IMG/VR virus record: IMGVR_UViG_2534681935_000039
Span: 1 to 30,262 of that record
Reading direction: 5' to 3' (one strand)
Length of the DNA: 30,262 nt
Source of the DNA: a virus
Lineage: Duplodnaviria > Heunggongvirae > Uroviricota > Caudoviricetes
Every line of letters begins with the position of its first letter. Position 1 is the stretch's first letter. Below are positions 1 through 30,262 of the stretch, piece by piece. A program made the position numbers and the translations under genes. The notes beneath the pieces are model-generated. The model searched no databases and was not told the origin of the DNA. It was given only the letters and a program-made list of their open reading frames with translations.

Positions 1-216
1 TTTCTTTAATGCCGCTTCTCGCTGTAATTCTTCAGATGCCAATTGTGCTGCACGATATAGCCGCTCTGATTCGGAAAGTTGTCTCCACGACATCGGGTCA
101 TCACGAGCAATGGAGCGCATATTTCGATAAATGCGGTCTTCAATGTTCTGTATTTCTCGCGCTGTTAACGTGCGCTGCGCCGCCTGCTGGACCGCTTGTA
201 TACATTCCTGTCTCAT
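1..216 (-). CDS. hypothetical virion-module protein, first 72 codons only (gene runs off the window start)
   Basis: ATG at 216-214 lies a few nt after the stop of the upstream 600-aa gene, GAGG about 9 nt upstream; frame open to position 1. Absent from ORF track because no stop in window. Confidence 0.35.
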   Translation of the reverse strand, partial: MRQECIQAVQQAAQRTLTAREIQNIEDRIYRNMRSIARDDPMSWRQLSESERLYRAAQLASEELQREAALKK

Positions 217-221
217 TTAAT

Positions 222-2024
222 TTAACCTCTCAAGAAACACGCCACAGCGACATCAAACAGGCTGGAATCCTGTATTGCCTGCTCACTTTCCCTGTTCGCT
301 TCATCCAGTACTTCACGCGCGCTGCGCGATTGTGGATTACCATCATCATCCAGCACGGTAATTATCATGTCAGGTGATTCAAGCAGCGAGTCTTCAGCTA
401 TGCGCAGATCAATATCTCCTGCCTGATCCGCCATCATTTTTTGTTCTGCCTGTTGCAATATTTTATCAGGCTCAAAAGGAGCTACTTCGTCTGGCGTCCT
501 GACATCTGCTGTTTTATAGAATGAAACAGCCTGAGCATTAAGTTCACTTTCTACCTGCAGTCGCCGTGCCAGTTCTGCTCGAGCTTCAAAAAACTGACCG
601 CCAGGCTCATGCGGTGCCAACGCGTTACGAGAAAATTCCAGGCGTTCTTGTGCCTGCCGGATTCGTTGGTCAATATCGCGAAGTCTGGCCTGTTTATCTG
701 ATCGAGCACGAGATAAAGCCTTACCGCTACCGGTTGGCTCTTCTGCAAGAATTTGTGCGCGCTGTTCAGTGAGATTTTCAATAATTCGTTGGCTATTAGC
801 GATTTCAGACTGGTAAACCTGTCTATCGCCACGCGGCAAAAGCTGCGCGGCCTGTTCTTCAAGCAACCGATTTTCTATAGCGCGCGCCGTTACTCCATCA
901 TCTACAGATGACAGAGCCTCATTAACTGCCTGAGACAGCAGACTCTTGCGCCCTAGAATTTCACTGAAAGATGCAGACTCAACAATGCTGGCAACGTCTA
1001 CAGGTCTCCCCTGGCTAACATCAGACATAGCTTTTCGCAGAGCCTGAATGTGAGAATTGCGCGAAAGCACGTTGATCGGCACGCCGGGAGCAATATCAAT
1101 TTCAGCATGATGAGCGGCATTCGCCGCCAGTGCAGCATCGACATCAACTGGTGAAAAATTTGGTGCGCTTGTAGACTCGCCGCGAGAGTTAATAAATCTG
1201 CCGACACCACCAAACGCCACCCCAAGAACAGCATCAATAGCAATTGCCTGTCGATCCAACACATCATACTGGTTAGCCATTTCGCTATAGCCACCATCAC
1301 GAAGCGTTTTTGCAGTAAGCCCACGCTGTGCCATACCGAACGCAATATTTGTACCTGCGGCATAGGCAATATCTGGCGTTGCACGTACTGCTGTTGCTGC
1401 GGCGCGTCGCACTGAACTTTCACCCGTCCGCGCAAGCTGAGCCGCCACACCTTCCGCCAGCGCACCACCAGCACGTAACCCGAGGCTCATAGGGATCAGT
1501 GTTCCAGCACCAGCAGTAATACCCTGCACTAATCCCGCTTCCTGCGCCGTCCTGAAATCAACACCCTGTGCTGTCAGCCGTTCAAACTCAGAAAAACCCT
1601 GTAGAGAAGTTACCGCCGCAGCACCTCCGACCGGACCACCGAGCATTGTACCGACAACAGCCTGCCCTCCCATATCGAACAACCCATAAAGGACCTGCCC
1701 GGCGGTTCCGGTTGTCGCGGCATCAGGCGTCAGCCGCTTAACCTGCTGCTCTGCTAGTTTTCTCTGCTCAGCAATGTATGAAACTGAAGTGTCATTGAGC
1801 GAGGTGTTTTCGTTAACAAACTGAGCAATCGGGGATACGATTTTATCCATCCCTGCCCATAGCAACTGATCTGGCTTTGCCACCAGCCCGGAGTACAAAC
1901 CAGACAATGCCGCTCCTACAGCATTGTCGAAAAAACCAACATCGCTGTTAAAGCCAGCTGGATTTGATGCTGCTTCGTCAAGCTGCTGATTCTGGTTTAC
2001 TGGATTAAGGCCAAAGTAACTCAT
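222..2024 (-). CDS. putative internal virion / ejection protein (600 aa)
   Basis: Gly/Ala-rich hydrophobic N-terminal third, then long Q/R/E-rich helical-looking region; ATGA start/stop overlap with upstream gene; position distal to tail tubular genes. Confidence 0.45.
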   Translation of the reverse strand: MSYFGLNPVNQNQQLDEAASNPAGFNSDVGFFDNAVGAALSGLYSGLVAKPDQLLWAGMDKIVSPIAQFVNENTSLNDTSVSYIAEQRKLAEQQVKRLTPDAATTGTAGQVLYGLFDMGGQAVVGTMLGGPVGGAAAVTSLQGFSEFERLTAQGVDFRTAQEAGLVQGITAGAGTLIPMSLGLRAGGALAEGVAAQLARTGESSVRRAAATAVRATPDIAYAAGTNIAFGMAQRGLTAKTLRDGGYSEMANQYDVLDRQAIAIDAVLGVAFGGVGRFINSRGESTSAPNFSPVDVDAALAANAAHHAEIDIAPGVPINVLSRNSHIQALRKAMSDVSQGRPVDVASIVESASFSEILGRKSLLSQAVNEALSSVDDGVTARAIENRLLEEQAAQLLPRGDRQVYQSEIANSQRIIENLTEQRAQILAEEPTGSGKALSRARSDKQARLRDIDQRIRQAQERLEFSRNALAPHEPGGQFFEARAELARRLQVESELNAQAVSFYKTADVRTPDEVAPFEPDKILQQAEQKMMADQAGDIDLRIAEDSLLESPDMIITVLDDDGNPQSRSAREVLDEANRESEQAIQDSSLFDVAVACFLRG

Positions 2025-2626
2025 TGCGGAATATCTCCGGAGAATCTCTGACGTTTCTGTGTCAGATTAAGAACAACGGGAGAACCATCATCTTTCAGCA
2101 GATAACCAGTACCAAGTTTCACCAGGTACTGACTATCGCCGTAACTTTGCAAACCATACTGACCAGGCGGTGTTTTTATCCCGGAGCCGACAACTTGTTC
2201 ATTCCAAGCCTGATTAGCCTGCTTATCGAATTGCTCTGCAGACATTCCCCACGGCAAAAGGACATTCCCCATTCCGTTATAGTCATGCACGCCACCTGTA
2301 GCTACGTTAACAGCCTGTTTCCAGACATCATTGTCAATTTCGCCTGATACCACGCCTTTTTTCGCCATCACACCAGCGTAATAATCCTTTGCGATCTCGT
2401 ATGCCATTGATGCCCCCTGAGCGTCACCAGCAAATGCATCCTTCACCATGTCAGAAAACTCAAGGCGAAGATCAGCATCTTTAGGCATCGGAATACCTTT
2501 CGCATCATCAGTACCTTTACGAGCCGCCGCGCCAGTAAGAATTGTCTGCGCAGCGGTTTCAGGAGACACGGAAACATCAGGATTAAACCAGTTTTTTTCT
2601 GCCAAAATACCACCAGGCTTATCCAT
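2021..2626 (-). CDS. hypothetical virion protein (201 aa from ATG 2626; ORF track extends to GTG 2692)
   Basis: ATG 2626-2624 overlaps stop of 2626..3477 as TGATG, suggesting translational coupling; same operon. Confidence 0.4.
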   Translation of the reverse strand: MDKPGGILAEKNWFNPDVSVSPETAAQTILTGAAARKGTDDAKGIPMPKDADLRLEFSDMVKDAFAGDAQGASMAYEIAKDYYAGVMAKKGVVSGEIDNDVWKQAVNVATGGVHDYNGMGNVLLPWGMSAEQFDKQANQAWNEQVVGSGIKTPPGQYGLQSYGDSQYLVKLGTGYLLKDDGSPVVLNLTQKRQRFSGDIPQ

Positions 2627-3477
2627 CAGTATCCCGGCAACGGCAGCAGATGGAGCGTTGGCACTGATCTGCTGTAGCGCTGACATATACACCTGCCCAC
2701 CACCAGTGCTCTGCCTGATGGTATCGAGATATGCTGCCTGTTGGGAAACTGGAGCATCACGAAGAAAACACCGATCTGATTGGCCTCGTCTTTGGAAAAG
2801 AACGTCAGTGGAGTGCCATATGACTTAGCAAGGTCACTGACCTGAGCGGCACGCAAGGCAACGCTCTGTCCAAAGTTATCCTTATTGCTCATGTCGATAG
2901 GCTTTGCCTGTCCGGAGGCAAGAGAGAACTGCACAGGATCCGACTGCCGCTGCTTTATCACCTGATTTGCAGCCGAAACAACGTTGTCATAAAGAGCTGC
3001 GCGTGCCGCATACCCCTCCCCTGTATCACCAGTATCCGGGCGTAATTGCTCAACATATGCTGTAATGCTGCTTGTCGGCATGTTGCGGAAAGAGCCTATA
3101 TACTGTCCGGCGATCTGCGTATTCTTAAACTCGGTATATCGCAGGTTTCCTTCTCTGACTCCATAAGCTGCAATAAAATCAGCCTCACCAGGTGGGTTAG
3201 GAAATTCAACTCCACGCATATACGCAACTGTCGCATCTCGAACCCGGCTGTCAATCATCGTTTTATATTCAGCCTGCTGCTGCCGACGCAGTTGATCCGC
3301 CTGCCGCATAAAACTTGCCTGCGCCTCAGAAGATGCCGCATCGAATGCTGCATTACCGGTATAGCGTTTGGTGTTGGTTGGAATTGTTGATAAACCAAGT
3401 GCAGCACTGACACCAGCAGTTAACTGCTGATCACTGTATGGCTGGCTACCGTTCTCATGATGGATAATGGCTAGCAC
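2626..3477 (-). CDS. hypothetical virion protein (283 aa); C-terminal ~40 residues look atypical
   Basis: ORF track; see finding on possible frameshift into the 2021..2692 frame near 2755-2830. Confidence 0.4.
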   Translation of the reverse strand: MLAIIHHENGSQPYSDQQLTAGVSAALGLSTIPTNTKRYTGNAAFDAASSEAQASFMRQADQLRRQQQAEYKTMIDSRVRDATVAYMRGVEFPNPPGEADFIAAYGVREGNLRYTEFKNTQIAGQYIGSFRNMPTSSITAYVEQLRPDTGDTGEGYAARAALYDNVVSAANQVIKQRQSDPVQFSLASGQAKPIDMSNKDNFGQSVALRAAQVSDLAKSYGTPLTFFSKDEANQIGVFFVMLQFPNRQHISIPSGRALVVGRCICQRYSRSVPTLHLLPLPGY

Positions 3478-3521
3478 AAAGCGCCTTCAGGGTAACAGGA
3501 TTAGATGCATCGAGAGGTTCA

Positions 3522-4049
3522 TCAGCAGAAACGCCAAGGTTGTTCGCACACTGCTTTGATATACGACATAGTGTCATTTTTATCAGTAGGCGGTGCCCAG
3601 CGATTAATTATCTCGCTGACGGTATCAATACCTTGCCGCTGATACGACATCAGGTTCCGCCCTAATGCACGAATCCCGTGTTCAGGTGTTTCGAATTTAG
3701 CAAATCGACCATCATCACCGGTCTGGCCTACCCACGGATTAGTTTTGCTGTATTCGAGATTTCCTGGGTTATTGTTGCGTATGCCACGGGCACGCTCGGA
3801 AGAGTCACTATCTGCTACAGCACGGCGAGCTCCAGCAGCAGTATCACTTAACTCGCCATTACTTTGGATGAATGCGGTCGCATTGTTTGCCGACCACTGG
3901 GACAATGCGGCATCAGCAACCTTCTCTTTAAACTCGATTTTCTTGGCCTGTATTTGCTCGTCGCTCCAGCCATGTGCAATGCCGTAATCCTCAATTTGCT
4001 GGAAAGTTTGCTTATTAGCCAATACGTATGCGGCGTTGTCGCCATACAA
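3522..4049 (-). CDS. hypothetical virion protein (175 aa)
   Basis: ORF track, co-directional and tightly packed in the virion operon; contains an RNNNPGN motif of unverified significance. Confidence 0.4.
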   Translation of the reverse strand: MYGDNAAYVLANKQTFQQIEDYGIAHGWSDEQIQAKKIEFKEKVADAALSQWSANNATAFIQSNGELSDTAAGARRAVADSDSSERARGIRNNNPGNLEYSKTNPWVGQTGDDGRFAKFETPEHGIRALGRNLMSYQRQGIDTVSEIINRWAPPTDKNDTMSYIKAVCEQPWRFC

Positions 4050-4072
4050 TGCTGCGGCATTTTTACCATTGT

Positions 4073-4534
4073 TCAGCAGCGTAGCCTGAAACTGGCCTTC
4101 TCGTAGGCATTTATTTGCCCTATCTCGTGCCGCCCGGCCTGCGTAGTGAACTGAATACGCTGCTGCTGCGCCTGCTGCATGAAAGCATTACGAGCCTGTT
4201 CATCCGGCAGCGACATAGCCAGTTGTTCGACCTGAGCATCAAACTGCTGTGTATACTCCTGACCTTTTCCAATAGCATTTTTCCCTTTCAGGTTAAGCAA
4301 ACCTGTTTCAGGGTTATTCAGCAGATCGCTGCTTATCTGGCTTAAGCTAAGAGAAGCATCCTGAGCCATAGCAACATTCGCGCGCTGTTTTGCCTGCGCA
4401 ATAATACCTGCATATTGCTCTGCAACATCGCCAAGTACATCACCGACATTTGGTGTCTGAAACGATGAGAATCCCTGCGTCGAAATCCCTCTGCTCTGAA
4501 CCTGACGGCCCGATGTTGTTGGTACAACTGGCAT
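4073..4534 (-). CDS. hypothetical virion protein (153 aa)
   Basis: ORF track; operon context. Confidence 0.4.
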   Translation of the reverse strand: MPVVPTTSGRQVQSRGISTQGFSSFQTPNVGDVLGDVAEQYAGIIAQAKQRANVAMAQDASLSLSQISSDLLNNPETGLLNLKGKNAIGKGQEYTQQFDAQVEQLAMSLPDEQARNAFMQQAQQQRIQFTTQAGRHEIGQINAYEKASFRLRC

Positions 4535-4546
4535 CTTATTATCCCC

Positions 4547-5086
4547 TTATCGACCGGTTGGAGTTCCAACAGCAGCAGAAATCGGCGCAGCCTTCTGAGA
4601 GAACGGGCTCCACGTTCCGCCGCCCATCTGGTATGCACCGTATGCTTTTAGTGGTGCCGTTAACAAAGTACTGGTCATCGATGATTTAGCAGCCGACTGA
4701 GCAGCAGCCCCCTGTGCCTGAGCATTCACTCCCTGAACCTGATACCCATATGCCTCACGCTGAGCATTATTCACTGTCGTTAACGCATCAAGAGTGCCGA
4801 ACTGAGCATTATCCGCAAAAACGTCAAGAGCTGTTCCGCTACTTAATTCCGCACCGGTAGCCCCCATAGTGGCCGCCGCAGTGCCTGAGCGTTGACGCAT
4901 TTCACGACGACGCTGATCCGCTTCAATATTCCCACGATTGATTGAATCCTGTGCCTGAGCTTCAGCAATTTCAGCATTCCGATCAGCTATGGCTGACTGG
5001 TATTTTGCCTGCTTGCTCTGGCTGTACATTGACGCGGCTGTGGATGCCACTGTGACGGCAACCAAAGCGATGGCTGGGTTACACAT
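4547..5086 (-). CDS. hypothetical virion protein with hydrophobic N-terminal segment (179 aa)
   Basis: N-terminal stretch AIALVAVTVASTAA looks membrane-like; Ala/Gln-rich; operon context. Confidence 0.4.
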   Translation of the reverse strand: MCNPAIALVAVTVASTAASMYSQSKQAKYQSAIADRNAEIAEAQAQDSINRGNIEADQRRREMRQRSGTAAATMGATGAELSSGTALDVFADNAQFGTLDALTTVNNAQREAYGYQVQGVNAQAQGAAAQSAAKSSMTSTLLTAPLKAYGAYQMGGGTWSPFSQKAAPISAAVGTPTGR

Positions 5087-5550
5087 TATTTTCTCTCCAT
5101 GTGAAATCTGTGGAAATTAAGACCAAGGGCACCATAAGGCGCGGCTTCTTCAAGCCTGAATCCAAGCCAGTGCAGCCATGCTTTGGCAACATGGTTTCGC
5201 TCGTCGACGTAGTTTTCCAGGCGCGGATAAACTGCCAGCATCTGCTGCAATACAGGGCGGCAGTGGCGAAGAAATGTCTTCTGATATTTTTCAATACGGC
5301 TGGTTCCTACCAGCCAGGGTGTACCATTGCCACCGATCATTGACGCCGGAGATACACCAAACATGGTTACCAGTTCTCCGTTCGCAAATCCTGACCAGGC
5401 CATAGTCGCAGTACGCAGACCAACACGCAGCGCATCTTCGGTAGTCATCAGTGATACCGCATACAGTTCGTCAATATCAGCCTGACGAACATCCGGCAAA
5501 ATCATCTGAAGATGCTCTTCGGTTGCGGGAATAATTTGAACATAGATCAT
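5086..5550 (-). CDS. hypothetical virion protein (154 aa)
   Basis: ORF track; 1-nt start/stop overlaps on both sides. Confidence 0.4.
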   Translation of the reverse strand: MIYVQIIPATEEHLQMILPDVRQADIDELYAVSLMTTEDALRVGLRTATMAWSGFANGELVTMFGVSPASMIGGNGTPWLVGTSRIEKYQKTFLRHCRPVLQQMLAVYPRLENYVDERNHVAKAWLHWLGFRLEEAAPYGALGLNFHRFHMERK

Positions 5551-8021
5551 CAGAATCCCCCAACAGTAAGGCGAGGAATAACGGCAAGAACAGACAGCGG
5601 CAACGGATCAAGCTGACGGATTTTTACACGTCCGTTTTTGCCCCAGTTACTGTCCAGTTTCACTTCTACTTTTCCGGTAGCATCATCAACAGGATCATCG
5701 TAGAACTCGAATTCACGCTGTGGATATTCGTACCATTTACCGCCGGGCGTAGTCGCCCAGATGCCGCGACTGGCATTCACAACCAGAGTAACGGAGGGGA
5801 TCACCTGTTTTTTGTCCAGCAGCGTTTCCTGTCCGTTAATGTTGATATCCAGTGTTTCGAATTCAGCAGTTATTGGCAGGCCGATGTGCACTACAGCCCC
5901 CGGAGATTCCAGCGTGACGGCACCTCCGGAAACCACTTTCTGTGGTTCCACGTTCGCATCAGAGAGAATGTTTACGGTCTGGCCTTCAAGATGAGACAGG
6001 CCTCCAAATGTCCGGCGCGCCATCTGCCAGTTCGTGGTGGCCACATTCCTGAGGGATGGCGGGACGTTCCTGTTAGCACGAACCACTACTGCGGTATTGC
6101 TGGTTACAGAAATAATGTCGCAACGTAATTCTTTTGACACTTCATCGCCAGTATCAGGATCAGTTCCGGTATAAGGGAACTGTAGTTGCGCGCCGACATC
6201 ACTACTGGTGAAGTACGCACCACCAGAAACACTGATTGTATATTCCGCGCGGTAATCCCATTCGCCAGAACCACCAGTGATGATCATCGTTCTGTCAGAC
6301 GTATTTCTTCCATCATAGCTAAGGCCAGAATCAACAAAGAAAGCATCTTCATCGCTGGTAAATAAACGGCTGGACAGTCGCTCGATGTATCTCACTGTTT
6401 GCCCGTTAACGGTTCGGTTAACGACGAAATACACCGCATCTTCATTGCCTTCGCTGATACTGCATGTGCTTTCATATTTTCCGGTACTGGATTGTGGTGC
6501 CCATGCAAAAACCTGCTGATCACGCAAATAGGTCATCACCAGTAATTTACCGTCATCACGAATGCAGAAGGCACTGGAGTAAGGGACTATCGAGAAGCAC
6601 CAGTCAACAATGCTGTGCTTCTGAAAAAGATGATTGGCAAGGATGGTCAGGTCGTTCCCCTGATAGCCGTCAACATCGAATGAGTAGGCCAGATCACGGA
6701 CAACGCTGCCTTTCTCCTGGACGAACAGAGCAATATTCGCCACAGCAATTGGCGGGACGTTGCTTGAGCCATTTGATCCCTGAGAGCTGAATGCAAATGA
6801 TGATGGGGTTAACACTTTGTTCTGGTCGCCGGTGATGACGTACTCACCTCCGGAAGTCAGCGCCACCAGAGAACCAACATCAATCAGGTGGCGGATCTCA
6901 TTAACCTGACGTCCGGCATAGGTGTAGATAATTCTGTCGTCATCCTGCGTAGGATTGCTTTTGCCAAAATCCTTATAATCCCCGGTACGGCTGGCCCAGA
7001 TAGTCTGAGGAAACGCAGTCGATGCGGCGAAGTAAAGACGTTGTTGATAATAAACAACAGTGCCAGGATAACCATTAACACTGTTCCAGGCATATTTAGC
7101 CCATTTATAGCTGGCATTATCCTCGCCCACGACCTGCGAAGGGATATAGGAAATCACCTCGGCAGTTGCAGTAGTTCCATTTGCAGCAGTGATACGGGCA
7201 ATGCCAAAACCACTGTGCAGATATTCCCACTCAATGCCAGTATCATCATCACCGGATCCGCCCCAGCCATCCCATGATGTGCCTTCTGTATGCGAAGGGC
7301 GCAAAGTACCTGTTTTGCCTGCTGTAACGGCGCGATAGTAGTTACTGTCTGCACGGCGAATATCGCCAATCGACGTACTCTTACTGGTTTCCCATACCGG
7401 CACAGAATCCACTGCAGGCTGTTCCAGATAGAACAATTTGCCTACCTGCTCCGCGCCAAAAATAGAGGCGCTTGCCGTTAGCGTAATTGTCCCGGTGCTG
7501 GCGCTGGCATAAACCGTCACTGACTCGTCAATATTGATATCTTCAAATGGCCCGTTCTTCGTTACCACATCAACCAGTTGCCAGTTGTCATGAGCATATC
7601 GGCGCAACTCTTTCGGCGGGTATGCCGGGTGAACCAGCGTAAGCACGTCGGCGCTTTGCGTGAATTTAATTCGGAACAGATCGGCTTCAGTATATGGCGT
7701 GGCAATTTCATAAATAACATTGCTGCTGTTCAGCACCAACGCACCATCTTTGATAACGCGCATGTACAGGTGTCCGAACTCCAGAGCATAGGTCTGAACC
7801 GTCGAGAACTGGAACGGGATCAGACGGCATTTACGATTTGGGTATTTGGCGGCACCGACAAAACGCGTACCAGGTCGATTCTCAACGCCGCCATACTGCC
7901 GCACGATAAAGTTATCGCACTTGCGCAATGCCACCTGGTACTTCGCCATGTCAATACGCCCGTACAACGACGGTCCAATCTCACCACCGGCAAAGCTGGG
8001 CTGGATCCAACTGATAGCCAT
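5550..8021 (-). CDS. tail tubular protein B-like (823 aa)
   Basis: Large beta-rich (S/T/G/V/Y/W) protein, not tape-measure-like; size and position after tail tubular A-like gene match podovirus gp12-type proteins. From memory, not searched. Confidence 0.55.
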   Translation of the reverse strand: MAISWIQPSFAGGEIGPSLYGRIDMAKYQVALRKCDNFIVRQYGGVENRPGTRFVGAAKYPNRKCRLIPFQFSTVQTYALEFGHLYMRVIKDGALVLNSSNVIYEIATPYTEADLFRIKFTQSADVLTLVHPAYPPKELRRYAHDNWQLVDVVTKNGPFEDINIDESVTVYASASTGTITLTASASIFGAEQVGKLFYLEQPAVDSVPVWETSKSTSIGDIRRADSNYYRAVTAGKTGTLRPSHTEGTSWDGWGGSGDDDTGIEWEYLHSGFGIARITAANGTTATAEVISYIPSQVVGEDNASYKWAKYAWNSVNGYPGTVVYYQQRLYFAASTAFPQTIWASRTGDYKDFGKSNPTQDDDRIIYTYAGRQVNEIRHLIDVGSLVALTSGGEYVITGDQNKVLTPSSFAFSSQGSNGSSNVPPIAVANIALFVQEKGSVVRDLAYSFDVDGYQGNDLTILANHLFQKHSIVDWCFSIVPYSSAFCIRDDGKLLVMTYLRDQQVFAWAPQSSTGKYESTCSISEGNEDAVYFVVNRTVNGQTVRYIERLSSRLFTSDEDAFFVDSGLSYDGRNTSDRTMIITGGSGEWDYRAEYTISVSGGAYFTSSDVGAQLQFPYTGTDPDTGDEVSKELRCDIISVTSNTAVVVRANRNVPPSLRNVATTNWQMARRTFGGLSHLEGQTVNILSDANVEPQKVVSGGAVTLESPGAVVHIGLPITAEFETLDININGQETLLDKKQVIPSVTLVVNASRGIWATTPGGKWYEYPQREFEFYDDPVDDATGKVEVKLDSNWGKNGRVKIRQLDPLPLSVLAVIPRLTVGGF

Positions 8022-8626
8022 CAGGACAACCTCGCAATGGTAAACTCGTCAACCGGTGGCTGTGGTTCCTGTGATTCATTCTGGCTATGCGAGCCAGCAC
8101 TAAGAATCACGCGATTGTACATATTGAGAGCAAATTTACCGAGATCCGCATTCCCAGTCAGCGCCATGTTAATAGCTGCCGCAAGACGCCAGGCCAGCGC
8201 CTCCATAAAAATGGCATCAAACATGTTCACATCTGTAACACGAGAGACATACTTGAGCCATGCCTGCGGCTGGTCTGTGTAGATCAACTTTCCTGTTCCG
8301 TTGGTGTCTGCACCAACTTCGTACTGAACGCGCATTGCTGCTGTTGGATTGCGTACACCAGGAAGCATAATTTCAGTAATGCGCAGACAATCGGACGGGT
8401 ACTGGTATGCGTATTCCCAGTCTGGCGGCGGATTGTTCGTATCTGCAAGCGCCACGCGTTTGGTAGCAAAGTTCCAGTCAAAATCAGAAAGCACAGCATC
8501 ACGGCAGGCCTCAAAGTGCAGCGAACATTCCCCCGCTTCCTTGCTGGCTTCTGTCAGGCTGTTAATGCTGCGGCTGTTGCCAATATTGGACAGCGCACGA
8601 TTACAGATCTCTACTGCAGAGGCCAT
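8021..8626 (-). CDS. tail tubular protein A-like (201 aa)
   Basis: Size and N-terminal pattern (ALSNIGNSRSINSL) resemble podovirus gp11-type proteins as recalled; immediately upstream of the 823-aa gene. Confidence 0.5.
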   Translation of the reverse strand: MASAVEICNRALSNIGNSRSINSLTEASKEAGECSLHFEACRDAVLSDFDWNFATKRVALADTNNPPPDWEYAYQYPSDCLRITEIMLPGVRNPTAAMRVQYEVGADTNGTGKLIYTDQPQAWLKYVSRVTDVNMFDAIFMEALAWRLAAAINMALTGNADLGKFALNMYNRVILSAGSHSQNESQEPQPPVDEFTIARLS

Positions 8627-8949
8627 TACTCACCCCCATTGCCGTACAGAGTTTCAGCCGCTGATTTTTCTACATCCCCGGAAACAGGAGCGATCGCCAT
8701 ATCAGTGATCTGCAGATCGGCGCTGCGATTAACACCATCGTCAGTTTCTCTGGCAGACATGCCTCGAATAACAGCCTTTGCAGTTATCATCACTTTTGTT
8801 CCGACGCCCAGAGGTTGCGCCTTCAGCTTATTCAATGTGTCGTTATTAAGAGTGATGCACAGCCCCCACGGGTATTCATCGCGAGTTCTGGTTTCTCCGC
8901 TCTCATCCTGGTAGCTGTCAGTGCCGGTTTTGAGGTTTACGAGTTCCAT
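8626..8949 (-). CDS. hypothetical structural protein (107 aa from ATG 8949; ORF track starts at GTG 8955)
   Basis: AGGAG 6 nt upstream of ATG 8949. Confidence 0.4.
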   Translation of the reverse strand: MELVNLKTGTDSYQDESGETRTRDEYPWGLCITLNNDTLNKLKAQPLGVGTKVMITAKAVIRGMSARETDDGVNRSADLQITDMAIAPVSGDVEKSAAETLYGNGGE

Positions 8950-8965
8950 ATACACTCCTGCAATA

Positions 8966-8999: not shown

Positions 9000-9344
9000 T
9001 TACACGCCCAGTTCTTTACGCTTATCTGCGATCTTCTCGCGGAGCGTTTCGGCTTTAGCGTTATGGTGTGGCTTCTCGTTAAAGAGCAATTCGTACTCTT
9101 CACGGAGCTTATCCAGTTCACCATCATCTGACACATCGTTGATGATTTTGGTGCTGGTTGCTGCCATAGACACCTTTCCTGCTACCTTTGCTTTTGCCTG
9201 TCTGGCTGCATCGTTAACAGGTTCCAGTGCGCTACCAGGCTCACCTTCGTATTCGATTTCTGCCCCCTCCGGCCACAGTGTGTTATGGATATGAGAGAGG
9301 CGCAGAACGCGGTATCTTGGTTTCTCACCTGACATCGATATCAC
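9000..9344 (-). CDS. hypothetical protein (114 aa)
   Basis: ORF track; operon context between capsid and tail genes. Confidence 0.4.
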   Translation of the reverse strand: MISMSGEKPRYRVLRLSHIHNTLWPEGAEIEYEGEPGSALEPVNDAARQAKAKVAGKVSMAATSTKIINDVSDDGELDKLREEYELLFNEKPHHNAKAETLREKIADKRKELGV

Positions 9345-9345: not shown

Positions 9346-9783
9346 TTAACCAGTTACTTTTGAGCGGATCGGGTACGGTGTATTGGCATCAACATCCAGA
9401 CTGATACCCGCAGTGAATTTGCCGGCCGTTAGTGGGCCAGTTGCGACGGAGTAGTTAACACGCAGATATCGCTGAACACCGGCAGGCACCTTTGCAGAAA
9501 CAACTCGTTTACCTGCTGTCAGGGTAGCCTTTGCCAGTGCGCCACTATCATAAATAGTGGACCATGAGCTGTTATTCTCACTCGTCTGCAACTGGATGTT
9601 TACAGTTGCCTCACCACTTGCCGTGGCGGCTTCGTTAACCAGCACCCAAAACTCAAGCGGATAACCCACGCCGATATCGCGACGGTTTCCATCAATTGGA
9701 CCGAGATCGATTACGTCAGTAGAAGCCGCGGTATTCGTAACCGCCTGAGCTTCGGAGAACATCAACAGTTTGTCGGTGATCAT
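9346..9783 (-). CDS. hypothetical virion protein, possibly capsid accessory (145 aa)
   Basis: ORF track; beta-rich composition; directly downstream of capsid gene. Confidence 0.35.
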   Translation of the reverse strand: MITDKLLMFSEAQAVTNTAASTDVIDLGPIDGNRRDIGVGYPLEFWVLVNEAATASGEATVNIQLQTSENNSSWSTIYDSGALAKATLTAGKRVVSAKVPAGVQRYLRVNYSVATGPLTAGKFTAGISLDVDANTPYPIRSKVTG

Positions 9784-18981: not shown

Positions 18982-18982
18982 A

Positions 18983-20907: not shown

Positions 20908-21211
20908 TGGTTGCCTCCTTTGCTGGGCTTTCTAACTTCTGAGTGGTTGTATCAAACTCAAACAACTTAACCACGTCATCAAACAGGACATAATCGCCAT
21001 CAGAATCTTCAGTCATGTCAGCGCCACAATCCTGACCGAACGAGTCACAACCATCCATATCAAGCTCGTATCGCTTGAGTTTTGCGATATTTGATAAATT
21101 CAGCGCCAGTACAGCAAGGTCATAAACCTCATCAGCGGTATACCCGGCACCATGCCCATACATTTCAATACGGGATATGATTTCTTCTACACGTTGTTTT
21201 GTGATCGTCAT
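20900..21211 (-). CDS. acidic hypothetical protein (103 aa)
   Basis: ORF track; overlaps neighbours by a few nt. Confidence 0.4.
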   Translation of the reverse strand: MTITKQRVEEIISRIEMYGHGAGYTADEVYDLAVLALNLSNIAKLKRYELDMDGCDSFGQDCGADMTEDSDGDYVLFDDVVKLFEFDTTTQKLESPAKEATSE

Positions 21212-21708
21212 TTTTGCTCACCTTCCTGTTCTTCCAGAAAAATACGCATAGCCTCAAGCATCTCTTCGGTGCCATACGGTGGCAACTTGTCACGCAGGAT
21301 GTGTTCAATGCTGTTAATGAACTTGCGGATTGCTTTGCGTTCAATTTCAGCCAGGAAAGCGTCGGTGGCTGGGGTTTCCGTGAAGTTGTCCTCCCAACCG
21401 TAGTACTCCTGACGACAGAAGTTATTAAATTCCTTCTCCGACTGTTTAAGCTCCGCATTCTCTGCTGCCAGCACCGAAAACTTCTCGTGTGCCAACTTAA
21501 CAGCCGCATCAGCCTGCTTAATTGACTCAATCGCTTTCTGCTGGTCTTCGGCCAGCTCATTAGCACGCACCAGTTGCACTTCCAGTTGCGTTGCCAAATC
21601 GCTGATCAGCTTTGCCACACTACGCATATCAACGGCACCACATTCTGCTTTCAGTTCCGAAGCCATCTCATACCCGGCGGCAACTAACCCTTTGATATTA
21701 CTTTCCAT
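21208..21708 (-). CDS. coiled-coil hypothetical protein (166 aa)
   Basis: ORF track; helical A/E/K/Q-rich composition. Confidence 0.4.
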   Translation of the reverse strand: MESNIKGLVAAGYEMASELKAECGAVDMRSVAKLISDLATQLEVQLVRANELAEDQQKAIESIKQADAAVKLAHEKFSVLAAENAELKQSEKEFNNFCRQEYYGWEDNFTETPATDAFLAEIERKAIRKFINSIEHILRDKLPPYGTEEMLEAMRIFLEEQEGEQK

Positions 21709-22231: not shown

Positions 22232-23032
22232 TTACTTGATAAATCCTGACGCCTTTCCCCGCCTGTATTCCTCCATCAGCCACTGCGCCGGTGTTATTCC
22301 CCCCAGGGTGGCGGCGTTAGGCATACACCCGAAACTTCGCCCTGGTGGATGGTAAACGTCTCTCCCTGTGTCCGGAGGCGTACTCATGGGTTCTGGCTTT
22401 GCCTGTATGCTGATCACCGGATCGGGTATCTGCTGTCCGGAAGCCACCTTTTTCGCCCAATCATCGAGCAGCCTGCGCGCGTGTTTCTCAACCTCAATCT
22501 CGCTAAGCTGGCGCTGATACATTGCACGGCGGGTATCACATACGACCCAGTACATAACCGGATGCCGCCACGGGAATCTTTCGGGACCACCAGGATATAA
22601 ACTTTTTTCCTTGCTGTACCGGTGAAACTCCGCCATCACATCGTCAATGGTGACGCCAAGAACCATCTTGCTGTCTTTGCACCACTTGATAAATTGCCCT
22701 GGAGACGGCCAGAACGGAGATTCACTGGCGCGGGCGTGGCGCATACCAGCAGAAACCTGTTCACGGGTTCGGATCCCCCCTTCGGCAAACGCAGCAATCC
22801 ACTGCTGTTTTGCAGCAACTTCCTGCTCTGGCGTCTTCAGGTTGGTTACCACTGCCGCCGGAAACAGTTGTTTCAGCTGTTTAAAAAGGGCATCAACAAG
22901 CCTCTCTGCTGACATGTTCACCACATTGTCATTGTTGACGTACTGATGCTCATAACCTGACATGCGAGAAAGGGCTTCTCCGTCACGGTTTTGTATCGCG
23001 GTAAAAACGTTGTTCACAAGAAATCCTCCCAT
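22232..23032 (-). CDS. replication protein P-like helicase loader (266 aa; start may be GTG 23017 after a GGGAGG RBS)
   Basis: Block SPFWPSPGQFIKWC and surrounding WIAAFAEGGIRTREQVSAGMR closely parallel lambda P as recalled; follows the O-like gene with overlap. Confidence 0.7.
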   Translation of the reverse strand: MGGFLVNNVFTAIQNRDGEALSRMSGYEHQYVNNDNVVNMSAERLVDALFKQLKQLFPAAVVTNLKTPEQEVAAKQQWIAAFAEGGIRTREQVSAGMRHARASESPFWPSPGQFIKWCKDSKMVLGVTIDDVMAEFHRYSKEKSLYPGGPERFPWRHPVMYWVVCDTRRAMYQRQLSEIEVEKHARRLLDDWAKKVASGQQIPDPVISIQAKPEPMSTPPDTGRDVYHPPGRSFGCMPNAATLGGITPAQWLMEEYRRGKASGFIK

Positions 23033-23829
23033 GCTTCAGGGCTGTTCCAGTGCGGAACGTTGTTATCAGGTAATGTTGATTGCTTCTGTCTGCTAATCTG
23101 CAGCCGCCTTGCCAGCTTCTGCTCCCACTGTGCCTGATGGTATGCCTTACCCTCAGCCATCCAGTAAATTCTGAACTCTGCAAGTTCCTGTGCCGTTGGC
23201 AGACTGTCCAGGTATATCCCCTGCAATGAGCTTTTCCGGAGAAAGTCATCTGATGGCTGCCATTGTTCATGCATGACAAATTTGCCTAATTGCCCTGGCC
23301 CACCAGGAGGAACAAAGTTATTCATCACGGCGTTGTTTGCGCCGGGGTCATGAGGCACAGAATCCCCGCTTTTTGTCCTGCTCTCCCTCTCTTGGTTAAA
23401 TGGCTGGTTATATGACTGGTTCTGGATCCCGTTTTTGGGATCATTCAACATCCCGTTTTTGGGATCATTCAACATCCCGTTTTTGGGTATATTCCCGTTT
23501 TCGGTAACATTACCGTTTTCGGGTTCATTACCCCCTTCCCGGTTGCCTTTAATGTTCCCGTTTTTGGTTATATTAAGAGAGAAAACCCGTACTCTTTTCG
23601 TCGCCCCCTTTCTCTCTCCGGTATCTGAAATAAGCCCCATTTTCATGAGCGATATAAGTCCGGCCTGCACGGTTTTTTTATTCAGGCAAGTGTCTTTAAC
23701 GAGGCGTTCTATGCTGGGGTAGCAGAGGTTATATTCATCGGCTCTGTCAGCCATCGAGAGCAGTATGAGCTTTAATGACGAGCTACCTGGATCTGTCTCC
23801 CAGGCCCAATCTGTTGCATGTCTGCTCAT
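23014..23829 (-). CDS. replication initiator, lambda O-like N-terminal DNA-binding domain with DnaT-like C-terminal region (271 aa)
   Basis: N-terminal LKLILLSMADRADEYNLCYPSIERL pattern like lambda O; internal tandem DNA repeats encode the NGN...KNGMLNDP linker; GGAG RBS. Confidence 0.65.
   Translation of the reverse strand: MSRHATDWAWETDPGSSSLKLILLSMADRADEYNLCYPSIERLVKDTCLNKKTVQAGLISLMKMGLISDTGERKGATKRVRVFSLNITKNGNIKGNREGGNEPENGNVTENGNIPKNGMLNDPKNGMLNDPKNGIQNQSYNQPFNQERESRTKSGDSVPHDPGANNAVMNNFVPPGGPGQLGKFVMHEQWQPSDDFLRKSSLQGIYLDSLPTAQELAEFRIYWMAEGKAYHQAQWEQKLARRLQISRQKQSTLPDNNVPHWNSPEAWEDFL
23426..23570. repeat. iteron array (candidate replication origin) inside the O-like gene
   Basis: Six copies of ATCCCGTTTT(T)GGGAT-like units starting near 23426, 23450, 23474, 23492, 23509 and 23555 (periods 24, 24, 18, 18, 45 bp). 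Confidence 0.6.
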
Positions 23830-24193: not shown

Positions 24194-24424
24194 TCATGAG
24201 TAGAAGAAGTATGCCAGTTCCGCTTTTGAGCGCAGCCATTGTCTTGTTTTACAGGCTTTAAAAAGCCCATTCATCAATACCTTACCTGGCATTTTGCGCT
24301 TACCTGTTAAGTGAGTCTGGATATAGTGACTCGTCGTTCCGGCTTCCTGTGCGAAGGCTTCACGCTCATCCGGAGTAAGTGCAAGCCAGTGCTTTTTGAA
24401 ATCGAAATGTCCGTTATCGCTCAT
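24194..24424 (-). CDS. Cro-like small HTH regulator (76 aa)
   Basis: First gene of the leftward early operon, divergent from the repressor gene across a three-operator region; helix-turn-helix-like stretch EAFAQEAGTTSHYIQTHL. Confidence 0.45.
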   Translation of the reverse strand: MSDNGHFDFKKHWLALTPDEREAFAQEAGTTSHYIQTHLTGKRKMPGKVLMNGLFKACKTRQWLRSKAELAYFFYS

Positions 24425-24578: not shown

Positions 24579-25163
24579 ATGAAAAGTATCCAGGACGTCC
24601 GCAGGCAAAATCTCAACGACTTGATCGACCGTGAATTCAATGGTGTTCAGACGCGGATGGCTGAAAAACTTGGAACTCAGGCAAATCTGGTAAACCGCTG
24701 GGCTCTTGGCAAGAAGGTTATCGGCGACCAGGTTGCGCGAAAAATTGAAGCTGCCGCCAATAAACCCCGTAACTGGCTTGATATCGATCGCTCGCTTTCT
24801 CAGGAAGGTTTTCAGCCTGTCGGACCAAGCGACATTGGTCAGCTGGCGGCTCACAACCTGGAACGCTGGATGAGCGAAAGCCGCGACCTTTCAACACAGG
24901 GAAAACTTCACCGCGCATCCGGCGTAGCCCAGGTGACAATCAGCCGCCTGTTAAACAATGAGGTCAGCGTTTCCATTTCCACCCTGGAGAATGTTGCATC
25001 CGCATTCGGGCGTCACGGCTATGAATTACTGATTCACCCGCACGACCCTGCGACCATCAACTATGATCGCTCGCGCTACGCATTGTTACCCGAAACCGAG
25101 AAAGCAAAGATCGAAAGTTACATTGAATTTGTCATCAACCAGAACGAAAAAAACAAACAATAA
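24579..25163 (+). CDS. prophage repressor candidate with two tandem HTH (XRE-like) domains and no recognisable LexA/S24 peptidase domain (194 aa)
   Basis: N-terminal QTRMAEKLGTQANLVNRWALGKK and second LSTQGKLHRASGVAQVTISRLLN HTH-like segments; divergent from the cro-like gene; own terminator downstream. Confidence 0.55.
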   Translation: MKSIQDVRRQNLNDLIDREFNGVQTRMAEKLGTQANLVNRWALGKKVIGDQVARKIEAAANKPRNWLDIDRSLSQEGFQPVGPSDIGQLAAHNLERWMSESRDLSTQGKLHRASGVAQVTISRLLNNEVSVSISTLENVASAFGRHGYELLIHPHDPATINYDRSRYALLPETEKAKIESYIEFVINQNEKNKQ

Positions 25164-27516: not shown

Positions 27517-27765
27517 ATGAAAGGTGCATTAGGTAAGAAGGAACTCCTGGCGGTGGTGCCACTGTCATGGAGCACTATCGACCGTATGGAGCGCGCAGGG
27601 GAATTTCCTAAACGCTGGTATATCACCGATAAACGCTGCGCATGGAACCGTGATGAAGTTGAGCGTTGGCTTGATGAACGTCAGGCAGCAAGCCCAGCAG
27701 AGTTCCAGGGTAAAAAACCTCCTGTTCAGCAACGTGTATATCGTCCCGTGAGCAACGCGGCATGA
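27517..27765 (+). CDS. AlpA-like small DNA-binding protein, candidate excisionase/regulator (82 aa)
   Basis: SWSTIDRMERAGEFPKRWYITDKRCAWNRDEVERWL resembles the AlpA/Xis-type HTH pattern; GAGAGG RBS. Confidence 0.5.
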   Translation: MKGALGKKELLAVVPLSWSTIDRMERAGEFPKRWYITDKRCAWNRDEVERWLDERQAASPAEFQGKKPPVQQRVYRPVSNAA

Positions 27766-27874: not shown

Positions 27875-28174
27875 GTGAGAAAGTTAAGCCGACTTGAAAA
27901 ATATCACATGAACAAGGTTTCAATGCGCAGTCCGTCAAAGATTGTCGCCGTTACTCCTGCGGCGATAGAGATCGAAAAACGCGCGATTGAAAGAGAGAAA
28001 AAAGGGCAGTTCCGCATTTCCGCTCACCTTTGGCTTCAGTGTATGGATGTCGCTTCTGGTGATGTTGAGCGTGCAAGGATCGCGGTTCGCAGGGACCAAT
28101 GTATCACAAAAGGTAACGGCCTTCGCCGTGGCGACTATAGCGGTATAGGATGTTGTGGAGTGGTTTATGACTAA
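27875..28174 (+). CDS. hypothetical protein (99 aa, GTG start)
   Basis: ORF track; its last codons overlap the methyltransferase start region. Confidence 0.35.
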   Translation: MRKLSRLEKYHMNKVSMRSPSKIVAVTPAAIEIEKRAIEREKKGQFRISAHLWLQCMDVASGDVERARIAVRRDQCITKGNGLRRGDYSGIGCCGVVYD

Positions 28175-28817
28175 GAAATACACACTAATCTATGCAGATC
28201 CACCCTGGGTATACCGGGACAAAGCCGCAGATGGTAATCGCGGTGCCGGTTTTAAATATCCGGTTATGAGTGTGCTGGATATCTGCCGCCTTCCTGTGTG
28301 GGATTTGACCGCTGAAAACTGTCTGTTGGCCATGTGGTGGGTGCCAACACAACCACTCGAAGCACTAAAAGTTGTTGAAGCCTGGGGATTTCGTCTGATG
28401 ACGATGAAGGGCTTCACGTGGATAAAATGTGGTAGTCGACAACCAGATAAACTGGTTATGGGTATGGGTCACATGACTCGTGCCAATAGTGAAGATTGCC
28501 TGTTTGCAGTAAAGGGAAAACTACCTCCGCGCATTAATGCAGGGATCGTTCAGTCATTTACCGCACCGCGGCTTGAGCATTCAAGAAAACCAGATGTCGT
28601 TCGTGAAAAACTTGTGCAATTGTTAGGCGATGTTTCTCGCATTGAACTGTTCGCCCGCCAGTCGTCTCATGGCTTCGATGTTTGGGGTAATCAGTGCGAA
28701 GACCCGGCAGTGCAACTACACCCTGGATACGCGTTGGATATCGGCGGATTAACAAATGCATTCAGCAATGCTCCGCTGTCACCAACAGACAACCAGGGGC
28801 GGGAGCGTGCAGCATGA
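28155..28817 (+). CDS. N6-adenine DNA methyltransferase, MT-A70 / phage Dam-like (220 aa; alternative start ATG 28167)
   Basis: Catalytic DPPW motif in LIYADPPWVY near the N-terminus; no adjacent restriction endonuclease recognised, so apparently orphan. Confidence 0.7.
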   Translation: MEWFMTKKYTLIYADPPWVYRDKAADGNRGAGFKYPVMSVLDICRLPVWDLTAENCLLAMWWVPTQPLEALKVVEAWGFRLMTMKGFTWIKCGSRQPDKLVMGMGHMTRANSEDCLFAVKGKLPPRINAGIVQSFTAPRLEHSRKPDVVREKLVQLLGDVSRIELFARQSSHGFDVWGNQCEDPAVQLHPGYALDIGGLTNAFSNAPLSPTDNQGRERAA

Positions 28818-29008
28818 ACAGGGCATCACCAGCAGATTTAAGGAAATGCCTTGAAACTGCAAACATGCTTGCACACAGCGGGATCAGGTTTGTTCCAATT
28901 CCCGCTGTCACTGATGCTGAATTTGCAACACTGTCAGCAATATTCACAGATAAAATTGAATCACTGGCAGCAGAAGCCGAGATGGAAGAAAATCAGCAGA
29001 ATAATTAA
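28814..29008 (+). CDS. small hypothetical protein (64 aa from ATG 28814)
   Basis: ATGA overlap with methyltransferase stop; the ORF-track frame 28694..29008 is the same frame with an unlikely upstream extension. Confidence 0.35.
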   Translation: MNRASPADLRKCLETANMLAHSGIRFVPIPAVTDAEFATLSAIFTDKIESLAAEAEMEENQQNN

Positions 29009-29011
29009 ACG

Positions 29012-30262
29012 TTATTCCCCCGCCATCCACTTCTCAAACTTCGACGGGGAGAACGGAATCAGATCCGTATGCTCCCCGTTAATCCAGGAATCAATCATAT
29101 CGGCCCACTGCTGCAACATGTAGGCGCGCTGTCTAGCGTATTCCGCTTTGTTATATACGGCGCGCACACCTTTCTGCTCATGTGCCAGAGCCTTTTCAAT
29201 CCAGTCTGAAGGATAACCAGCCTCATGCAACAACGTACTGGCTGTACGGCGCATATCATGTACAGTGAAGTCCTGAATATGCTCACCATCTTCATTTATT
29301 ATTTTCACCGTTCTGTCGATCAGAGAGTTCAGCGCGGCATTAGATAATGGCTTCCGGAAGTTGTAACGACCAGGAACCAGATATTCACTTCCACCAGCGC
29401 ACATCTGCAACCCGACCAATATATCCTGAGCCTGTTTAGGCAGGTAAATAACATGCGCCCGGCTTCCCTTCATGCGGTCTGAAGGAATTGTCCATGTCCA
29501 TTTTTTAAAATCTATTTCATCCCACGTTGCATTGGTGAATTCGCCCTTACGAACCATAGTGATAATCACCAGTTTTAAAGCCATTTTCATAGTTCCCATA
29601 GCACCAATGGCATCCAACGTGCGGAAGAACAGGCCAATTTCTTCTGGTGTCAGTGTTCGCTCTCGTGGTTTAAATATGGCGATAGACGAAGGTTTAATGT
29701 CAGCCGCAGGATTAAACAAACCATGACCACGGTCATTGGCGTGACGGTATACGCTGCTGATGATCTCCCTGGCCTGTACTGCTGTTGCCCGACCACCGCG
29801 TTCGACAATCCGGTCACACAAATCACGAACCATCAATGTGGTAATTTCAGCCATCATTTTGTTGCCAAGAACCGGAAGTATGTCACGGTCGATCACCGCC
29901 TGCTTCATTGCGCGGGTACTGTCAGCCAGGATGACGTGTTTCATATAACTGTCGGTATGTACCGCAAACGTCTCGGCACCACGAATCTTTTTGATACCGT
30001 CACGTTTAGCCGCAGCCGGCGACTGGCCTGCTTTAAGCAGCTTCTTTGCAGCAATCAGTTCTTCCCGCGCTTCTGCCAGGCTGATACCGTCACGCCCATA
30101 CTGCCCGATTACCAGTGTTTCGCGGCGACCGTTGATACGGTAGTCATAGCGAAACGAGACCGTACCTGACGTAAGCACAGCTACATACAGCCCGTCACGA
30201 TCGGAGACTTTGTATAGTTTGTCCTGCGGCTTGAGGTTTTTTAATTTTGTATCGGTAAGCAC
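29012..30262 (-). CDS. int: tyrosine integrase, N-terminus truncated by window end (416 aa in window)
   Basis: N-terminal LTDTKLKNLKPQDKLYKVSDRDGLY arm-binding pattern typical of P4/lambda-type integrases; C-terminal H-x-x-R (HDMRRTAST) and tyrosine region (VRAVYNKAEY); reading frame still open at 30262. Confidence 0.8.
   Translation of the reverse strand: MLTDTKLKNLKPQDKLYKVSDRDGLYVAVLTSGTVSFRYDYRINGRRETLVIGQYGRDGISLAEAREELIAAKKLLKAGQSPAAAKRDGIKKIRGAETFAVHTDSYMKHVILADSTRAMKQAVIDRDILPVLGNKMMAEITTLMVRDLCDRIVERGGRATAVQAREIISSVYRHANDRGHGLFNPAADIKPSSIAIFKPRERTLTPEEIGLFFRTLDAIGAMGTMKMALKLVIITMVRKGEFTNATWDEIDFKKWTWTIPSDRMKGSRAHVIYLPKQAQDILVGLQMCAGGSEYLVPGRYNFRKPLSNAALNSLIDRTVKIINEDGEHIQDFTVHDMRRTASTLLHEAGYPSDWIEKALAHEQKGVRAVYNKAEYARQRAYMLQQWADMIDSWINGEHTDLIPFSPSKFEKWMAGE

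Follow-up and report, generated by a model that had tools for sequence, protein, structure and literature searches.

The stretch of DNA described here is IMG/VR virus record IMGVR_UViG_2534681935_000039, positions 1 to 30,262, called the window below. With a probability of roughly 0.93, it is about three quarters of an ordinary, previously described kind of prophage, a Uetakevirus (epsilon15/phiV10-type) lying beside guaA in Escherichia coli. It would then cover the ~30 kb on the integrase side of a prophage of roughly 39 kb, inserted at the 3' end of guaA in the draft genome of an E. coli strain. An initial annotation had called it a mosaic temperate phage, with lambdoid lysogeny and replication modules joined to a podovirus virion module in T7-like order. 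The temperate phage stands, as do the lambdoid-style early region and the T7-type portal, adaptor, nozzle and internal protein module. The new mosaic does not, since this is the Uetakevirus architecture at 97-98% identity.

Positions 1-25000 of the window were compared by megablast with 50,697 phage records. Nucleotide identity is 97-98% to vB_EcoP_PAS61 (81% of the query covered), phiv142-3 (80%), the O157 typing phages 9 and 10 (78%) and phiV10 (65%), and also to HEMP4 (in the 78-81% range) and ZX5. The parts of the query that these Uetakevirus relatives leave uncovered are accessory cassettes. Salmonella phage epsilon15 matches the structural block at about 75% identity. At least 185 complete E. 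coli genomes hold a copy covering 80% or more of the query.

The usual genus criterion of the International Committee on Taxonomy of Viruses is about 70% or more nucleotide identity over the genome. The window has 97-98% over 65-81% of its first 25 kb, with some 9 kb of the prophage lying off the contig. The RefSeq record of phiV10 (NC_007804) assigns that phage to the genus Uetakevirus. By BLAST, the window is collinear, gene for gene, with the annotations of phiV10 and PAS61, and reverse-complemented relative to both maps. This collinearity takes in the gp7-type capsid, the gp10 decoration protein, the portal, gp11/gp12 and gp13-gp17.

The genomic setting agrees. The window comes from draft assembly GCA_000249435.2, where it occupies positions 1-30262 of the 135,686-bp contig AIFN01000063.1. 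Past the integrase gene, this contig continues directly with guaA, guaB, xseA and der, which means that the phage is integrated as a prophage, at the guaA 3' end. Integration at guaA has been established experimentally for ZX5 and is reported for phiV10 and epsilon15, and the attachment site (att) core of epsilon15 is reported to be identical (PMC9782041). This 17-bp core, ATTGAGTGGGAATGATT, does not occur within the window. In the near-identical record PH444 it follows the end of the window sequence at a distance of 191 bp, in agreement with the same paper. The attL of this prophage is accordingly predicted about 190 bp beyond the window's right edge; guaA adjoins int, and the att core itself is beyond the window.

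PH444 (PP350014.1) is a 114.9-kb unannotated 'UNVERIFIED_ORG' record with a 99.7-99.8% identical copy of window positions 6416-30262. Over positions 1-15649 of that record there is, after an abrupt switch inside the nozzle gene, sequence that matches nothing in E. coli genomes. PH444 is probably a chimeric assembly, and it served only as a near-identical comparator, over 20.5 kb.

At the other side, position 1 of the window is the end of the contig and falls inside the gp17 homologue. No tailspike, lysis cassette or attR is visible because the contig ends there. In the genus, a tailspike gene, an O-antigen-modifying gene and the lysis cassette are expected between gp17 and att; in this prophage that part would be outside the window, on another contig. 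The initial annotation had correctly stated that the window contains no phage RNA polymerase, lysis cassette or attachment site.

All genes that it had named are indeed present, at the coordinates it gave, as judged by Pfam, PHROG, PDB and fold matches. The virion and packaging genes are, from the contig end inwards:

1..216, minus strand: N-terminal 72 codons of an epsilon15 gp17 / phiV10p20 homologue, truncated where the contig stops (phrog_684 'virion structural protein', E 9.6e-29; aligns to phiV10 16861-17076)
222..2024, minus strand: 600-amino-acid epsilon15 gp16 / phiV10p19 homologue, putative ejection protein, part of the equivalent of internal virion protein (IVP) C (phrog_1145, E 0; no Pfam match)
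2021..4534, minus strand: epsilon15 gp15 / phiV10p18 homologue, 837-amino-acid internal/ejection protein, here in four open reading frames (ORFs) (phrog_992, 1044, 7182)
4547..5086, minus strand: internal virion protein B, T7 gp14 family, 179 amino acids (PF24072 T7_gp14, E 6.7e-8, above gathering score; phrog_418)
5086..5550, minus strand: equivalent of internal virion protein A, epsilon15 gp13 (phrog_308 'internal virion protein', E 1.3e-62; synteny, PMC4819975)
5550..8021, minus strand: tail nozzle, probable equivalent of tubular protein B, 823 amino acids (PDB 8CK1_A 'Tail Nozzle', E 1.5e-216; LME-1 chain 9EFK_M, E 1.2e-15; phrog_376 tail protein)
8021..8626, minus strand: tail adaptor with the tubular protein A / T7 gp11 fold, 201 amino acids (AlphaFold2 (AF2) model, pLDDT 87, and Foldseek)
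8626..8955, minus strand: epsilon15 gp10-like capsid decoration ('staple') protein (PF21628 Gp10-like, E 1.9e-50)
9000..9344, minus strand: epsilon15 gp9 homologue, probably a head or neck accessory protein (phrog_590; annotated in phiV10 as similar to epsilon15p09)
9346..9783, minus strand: Bbp16-like protein (PF21190 Bbp16, E 3.6e-49)
9835..10827, minus strand: major capsid protein, epsilon15 gp7 / BPP-1 type (PF20911 GP7, E 2e-149; PDB 3J4U, 9e-129; 8CJZ; 3J40, 4e-85)
10836..11537, minus strand: probable scaffolding protein, 233 amino acids (composition, model, position)
11534..11830, minus strand: Bbp19-like small protein (PF25181, E 2.8e-17)
11827..13506, minus strand: portal, T7 gp8 family (PF12236, E 1.6e-187; PDB 8CK0, E 5.6e-179)
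13521..13727, minus strand: epsilon15 gp3 homologue (phrog_831)
14901..16376, minus strand: terminase large subunit (TerL), not T7-type (phrog_2, E 1e-52)
16373..17047, minus strand: terminase small subunit (TerS) (PF03592, E 1.4e-29)

For TerL there was no Pfam or PDB sequence match, and the T7 TerL families were not matched. An NCBIfam search with ten structural proteins gave no useful family. TerS and TerL lie upstream of the portal, as the initial annotation had it. It was also right about the missing genes: among the ORFs of the window there is no tape measure, sheath, tube, RNA polymerase or lysis gene. The single PHROG 'tape measure' match (phrog_2276) covers residues 185-421 of the gp15-like protein and overlaps a muralytic domain. 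That domain, at residues 249-398, matches PDB 9VVP Gp29 and the endolysin 7Q47, and is transglycosylase-like. From this gene content the particle is predicted to be a short-tailed podovirus.

How far the virion is T7-like depends on the protein. A pairwise phmmer comparison of all virion proteins of the window with those of T7 and P22 found nothing significant. For the portal, gp14, gp13 and scaffold the best T7 match was the syntenic partner, with E values of 0.002-0.05 that come from a 25-sequence database. This comparison was superseded by shared-Pfam and fold tests. The portal and T7 gp8 are both in PF12236, and the 179-amino-acid protein and T7 gp14 are both in PF24072. The adaptor sequence falls below a Pfam PF17212 match. 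Its AF2 model, built from a 41-sequence alignment, was searched against the PDB with Foldseek. This returned the Carin-1 connector (8CK1_E, TM 0.83), followed by the LME-1 adaptor. T7 gp11 was found as well (7BOX, E 5.8e-6, TM 0.57; also 7EY7 and 6R21), at probability 1.00 and TM 0.55-0.6. Tail tubular protein A (TTPA) of KP32 and cyanopodovirus adaptors were also returned. The nozzle has no Pfam PF25675 match and no significant phmmer match to T7 gp12. This protein, initially labelled 'tubular B-like', is called a nozzle for its match to the solved Carin-1 'Tail Nozzle' listed above. The LME-1 tail has been described as closely resembling that of T7 (PMC12407071).

Hardies et al. came to related results by profile comparison (PMC4819975). 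In epsilon15, they identified gp11/gp12 with the T7 classes of tubular protein A and B, gp13/gp14 with IVP-A/IVP-B, gp15 plus gp16 with IVP-C, and gp17 with IVP-D, and found that the terminase and capsid of this phage group elsewhere. The window agrees with this: its capsid is in PF20911 and not in T7's PF21703, and its TerL lacks PF22530. The features of the 'transient tail homology group' of these authors are present in the form of a gp8-family portal, the gp11 adaptor fold, and internal virion proteins downstream of the nozzle. The last of these rests on the PF24072 match, the PHROG 'internal virion protein' assignments for the gp13- and gp14-like proteins, and the muralytic domain of the gp15-like protein. 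The gp16- and gp17-like proteins are assigned by synteny and literature. For the former, a putative ejection role follows the same paper; the latter would be of the internal virion protein D class (PMC4819975).

Membership of Autographiviridae does not fit, with no RNA polymerase ORF in the window and a capsid and terminase of other families. The word 'T7-like' is correct for the portal and for the proteins of the tail and of ejection, and incorrect for the capsid, which is of the epsilon15/BPP-1 type, and for the terminase. A comparison with T7 proteins and with P22-like equivalents had been suggested initially. The likeness to T7 held for gp8 by family and for gp11 by fold, and failed for gp10; the P22 equivalents were not matched.

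The 'scaffold' of the initial annotation needs separate mention. Databases (NCBI, PHROGs) name the 233-amino-acid family at 10836-11537 'peptidase', 'protease' or 'endoprotease'. No Pfam, NCBIfam or PDB protease match was found for this protein. Pro, Ala, Asp, Glu and Lys are abundant in its N-terminal half. The AF2 model shows helix as its only secondary structure: one helix spans 43 residues, about 85 residues are disordered, and there are zero beta strands. The gene sits between the portal and capsid genes, like T7 gp9. Because of this composition, model and position, a scaffold is favoured over a protease with moderate confidence. The low confidence of the model (pLDDT 49) speaks against leaning on it too heavily. 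The 'peptidase/protease' label on the family is unsupported.

Two other identities for the window have to be weighed. One is that it is a novel mosaic, formed by recent recombination of a lambdoid prophage with a T7-like lytic podovirus. The early region is indeed lambdoid in organisation and encodes a member of the lambda P family. DNA of Stx, lambdoid and P22-like phages matches the accessory block (17.6-21.6 kb) at 90-98% identity, and the portal, adaptor and gp14, and probably the nozzle, are T7-related. But many isolated phages and hundreds of prophages have the same arrangement at 97-98% identity, and it is conserved at lower identity in epsilon15, Tyrion, PAT1 and others. The relationship to T7 is ancient, as pairwise sequence similarity is not significant, and genes for an RNA polymerase or for T7-type replication, capsid or terminase proteins are missing. 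Wide conservation, together with non-significant similarity to T7, indicates that the join is old and defines a known genus. This leaves a recent mosaic with a very small probability; near-identical sequenced phages and collinear annotations rule out a recent or novel event.

The second is that the window belongs to a P22-like (Lederbergvirus) temperate podovirus instead of an epsilon15-like one. Such phages are likewise temperate and short-tailed, with an enterobacterial host, a lambdoid-style early region and accessory genes in common with the window. However, the portal is in PF12236 and not in PF16510 (P22_portal), the P22 gp4 and gp10 families are not matched, and the fold search with the adaptor returned T7-type adaptors and no P22 gp4. 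The phmmer comparison with P22 virion proteins was, as noted, without significant result. Lederbergvirus membership is rejected by the family tests on portal, gp4 and gp10, and is even less credible than a recent mosaic. The Uetakevirus prophage is therefore the reading used in what follows.

The early region, which the initial annotation called lambdoid, holds these genes:

29012..30262, minus strand: P4-type tyrosine integrase, whose start codon is the end of the window (PF13356, PF22022, PF00589)
28155..28817, plus strand: orphan MT-A70 adenine methyltransferase (PF05063; PADLOC MTase_II)
27517..27765, plus strand: AlpA-family protein, probable excisionase or regulator (PF05930)
26586-27467, plus strand: RecT annealase, 293 amino acids (PF03837)
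25768-26589, plus strand: RecE-like PDDEXK exonuclease (PF12684)
24579..25163, plus strand: prophage repressor with two helix-turn-helix (HTH) domains and no S24 peptidase domain (PF01381 and others; annotated putative repressor in phiV10 and PAS61)
24194..24424, minus strand: cro-like repressor, 76 amino acids, divergent from the repressor gene (phrog_35, E 5.6e-13)
23014..23829, minus strand: replication initiator with HTH_36 and DnaT domains (Pfam)
22232..23032, minus strand: lambda P family helicase loader (PF06992, E 1.5e-56)

Family matches add DUF1382 and PerC-like proteins to this region. Run on ten accessory proteins, PADLOC reported only the orphan methyltransferase and no defence system.

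What is lambdoid here is the layout and the P protein. Of the genes tested, only P is in a lambda family; the integrase is P4-type, the initiator that had been called O-like is an HTH_36 plus DnaT protein, and the repressor lacks S24. Similarly, the 'RecE-like/Bet pair' turned out to be half right: the exonuclease is RecE-like, and the annealase is RecT and not Bet. The early region works like a lambdoid one, and the prophage is not a member of the lambdoid group.

The repressor of ZX5, reported to be identical to that of phiV10, has been experimentally tested, and the absence of the S24 domain fits the antirepressor control demonstrated for ZX5 (PMC9782041). Inside the initiator gene, at 23426-23575, there is an array of iterons, with at least six ATCCCGTTTTTGGG-type repeats at a spacing of 18-24 bp. 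This array is probably the replication origin. At 23400, phiV10 and the window differ by an insertion or deletion (indel) of one 12-bp repeat unit.

Some relatives differ in the recombination genes. The phiV10 record has the RecE-like/RecT pair as one RecE-RecT fusion; the cause is a single differing nucleotide position (1 nt) near 26568. Prophages at guaA that are near-identical in other respects have a YqaJ exonuclease and a 340-amino-acid RecT in place of the DUF3799 exonuclease and the 293-amino-acid RecT.

This particular copy of the prophage has one conspicuous irregularity. The 'series of internal virion proteins' that was initially described is present, with the correction that four of its ORFs are fragments of one 837-amino-acid gene with four frameshifts. 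These gp15-like fragments are:

4073-4534, minus strand: first fragment
3522-4049, minus strand: second fragment
2626-3477, minus strand: third fragment
2021-2692, minus strand: fourth fragment

The gene is split by single-base indels at 2762 (-1), 3473 (+1), 3538 (+1) and 4101 (-1). In phiV10, the prophages TUM13773 and CE10 and all IMG/VR relatives, it is one uninterrupted ORF of 2514 nt. None of the four indels is present in the 100-117 relatives that cover each site. Exact-match scans found the frameshifted allele zero times in IMG/VR and zero times in the GTDB species representatives, and the intact allele in 113 IMG/VR viral contigs; the truncated 153-amino-acid product was found in this one assembly only. 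That the -1/+1 and +1/-1 pairs might restore a readable frame was considered and rejected, as the shifted stretches are full of stop codons.

The four frameshifts are probably local consensus errors in a draft contig. No more than 4.1 kb separates them from its end, and three of the four alter the length of a run of 1-3 bases. The gene has 2 private substitutions against 4 private indels, which has a P of about 1e-3 at a 10% indel share under neutral decay. Two points weigh against assembly error. Four indels in a 1.34-kb stretch are improbable if errors are spread evenly (P about 1e-4), and both the remainder of the window and the host genes beside it look clean. Over the 20.5 kb compared with PH444 there are just two indels, both intergenic homopolymer contractions.

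The same points favour a prophage that is truly defective. In that case the gp15-like gene was inactivated by real and recent frameshifts, particles would be non-infectious, and the prophage would be a decaying or domesticated remnant. The lesions are packed into one gene, and full-length flanking host genes mean that the assembly is not generally error-ridden. Yet neutral decay predicts many more substitutions than indels, the reverse of what is seen, and it should not leave every other phage gene intact; nor does any other assembly or viral contig carry the lesions, which sit close to a draft contig end. A defective prophage is hence possible, if rather unlikely. Quite improbable is the more specific case in which the frameshifts are real and an otherwise intact prophage selectively lost one internal virion protein, or split it into separately translated pieces, with all its other genes still under constraint. 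If true, it would point to, for example, a lineage maintained because it serves some non-infective function, or to rescue by a related prophage in the same cell. Local consensus error remains the preferred explanation, and until the frameshifts are checked against reads this copy should not be counted as an intact prophage.

The two contractions relative to PH444 are private to the window. They are at 24094 and 24117 (A8 to A7 and T6 to T5), between the orf66-like gene and cro, and are of the error type shared with three of the four gene-breaking indels.

The remaining features are accessory genes, a regulator and a tRNA:

17605..21708, minus strand: accessory block with DUF551, DUF1064, Ead/Ea22 and other proteins (Pfam)
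17274..17615, minus strand: putative transcriptional regulator of epsilon15 gp49 / phiV10p55 type, just upstream of the late genes (phrog_536, E 6e-54)
17044-17256, minus strand: 70-amino-acid ORF, on a segment of ~200 bp that separates the p55-like regulator gene from TerS (phrog_1541)
14430..14810, plus strand: moron gene of the N4 gp49 / Sf6 gp66 family, on the strand opposite to the late genes (PF13876, E 3.4e-35)
14155..14231, plus strand: tRNA-Arg, anticodon UCU (ARAGORN; Rfam RF00005, 73 bits), conserved in phiV10 and PAS61

Between about 17.6 and 21.6 kb the nucleotide identity to Stx-converting, other lambdoid and P22-like phages is 90-98%, and such sharing is confined to this block. 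Judged by these sequence matches, the block appears to have been exchanged with those phages. The ~200-bp segment with the 70-amino-acid ORF is missing in phiV10 and PAS61 and present in PH444. It coincides with the mapped ends of the linear genome record of phiV10.

An Rfam search of the window found the tRNA only. To its 3' side, at 14275-14310, is a strong terminator-like hairpin with a 14-bp stem. The same tRNA-Arg is at 2853-2929 in phiV10, and is unannotated in both the phiV10 RefSeq and the PAS61 records. These records instead hold an antisense 83-amino-acid 'hypothetical protein' over it (phiV10p04, window 14161-14412). This ORF is probably spurious. The ZX5 paper reports one tRNA (PMC9782041).

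Within the virion module, the gp14-like gene and the start of the gp15-like gene (its first ~140 nt), at window positions 4397-5082, have a divergent allele, which does not align to phiV10 or PAS61 DNA. The allele is also found in the E. coli prophages TUM13773 and CE10. Its presence there and absence from phiV10 and PAS61 indicates a small cassette swap inside the internal-protein operon.

From these parts, a working cycle of the phage can be proposed. The P4-type integrase and its AlpA-like partner would insert and excise the genome at the 17-bp att core, as has been shown in relatives. The two-HTH repressor, facing the cro-like gene, would keep lysogeny, and an antirepressor encoded outside the window may counter it, as shown for ZX5. 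The HTH_36/DnaT initiator would bind the iterons in its own gene and recruit the host helicase via the lambda-P-type loader. TerS and TerL would then carry out DNA packaging. The capsid is of the epsilon15/BPP-1 type, and would be assembled around a T7-type portal with a helical scaffold. For the short tail, a dodecameric gp11-fold adaptor and a hexameric nozzle are predicted. By analogy with T7 and epsilon15, the gp13- to gp17-like internal proteins, one of them muralytic, would be ejected to bridge the cell envelope.

The discovery value of all this is small. Phages of the epsilon15/phiV10 type have been sequenced, classified, imaged by cryo-electron microscopy and used as O157 typing and reporter phages. 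Their architecture is already known, and the literature covers the lambdoid-style early genes as well as the T7-type proteins of tail and ejection; the T7 homologies of epsilon15 gp11-gp17 have been published (PMC4819975). The practical outcomes are the relabelling of the probable scaffold, the tRNA-Arg missing from the phiV10 RefSeq record, and a caution about the frameshifts in this copy.

Among known systems, T7 has the same order of portal, scaffold, capsid, adaptor, nozzle and internal virion proteins, and shares with the window the portal and gp14 Pfam families and the gp11 adaptor fold. Unlike T7, the window is from a temperate phage, with no RNA polymerase and no T7 replication genes. 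Its capsid and terminase are of different families, its terminase is upstream of the portal, three small head-accessory genes stand between capsid and adaptor, and pairwise sequence similarity is not significant. Lambda shares the layout of the early region: int, recombination genes, repressor/cro, an initiator with internal iterons (as in the O gene), and then P. Lambdoid phages further have the P family and the Ea22, DUF551 and DUF1064 accessory genes in common with the window. In contrast to lambda, the integrase is P4-type, RecE-like/RecT take the place of Exo/Bet, the initiator is not of the lambda O family, the repressor is without an S24 domain, and the virion module is unrelated. In phiV10 the lysis cassette follows the tailspike, beside att, whereas in lambdoid phages the late genes are Q-dependent and lysis precedes the head genes.

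Cobetia marina phage Carin-1 (PDB 8CJZ, 8CK0, 8CK1) and Legionella LME-1 (9EFK) provide solved homologues of the portal, adaptor, nozzle and capsid, with E values down to 1e-216 and an adaptor TM of 0.83. Their structures show a dodecameric portal and adaptor and a hexameric nozzle. Their hosts are distant, and no DNA-level similarity to the window was found. Epsilon15 (NC_004775), the type of the group, for which cryo-electron microscopy of capsid and virion exists, is temperate and has the same gp7, gp10, portal, gp11/gp12 and gp13-gp17 families. It differs in its host and in its receptor-binding genes, which lie outside the window, and its early region has diverged; the ZX5 paper gives 42% repressor identity (PMC9782041). 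The capsid of the window is closer to that of BPP-1 (3J4U, 9e-129) than to epsilon15 gp7 (4e-85). The phiV10 group is nearest. It shares the gene order from integrase to gp17, the tRNA-Arg, the repressor, the initiator/P pair, the terminase, the virion module and the guaA att site, and differs in the cassettes at 17.6-21.5 kb.

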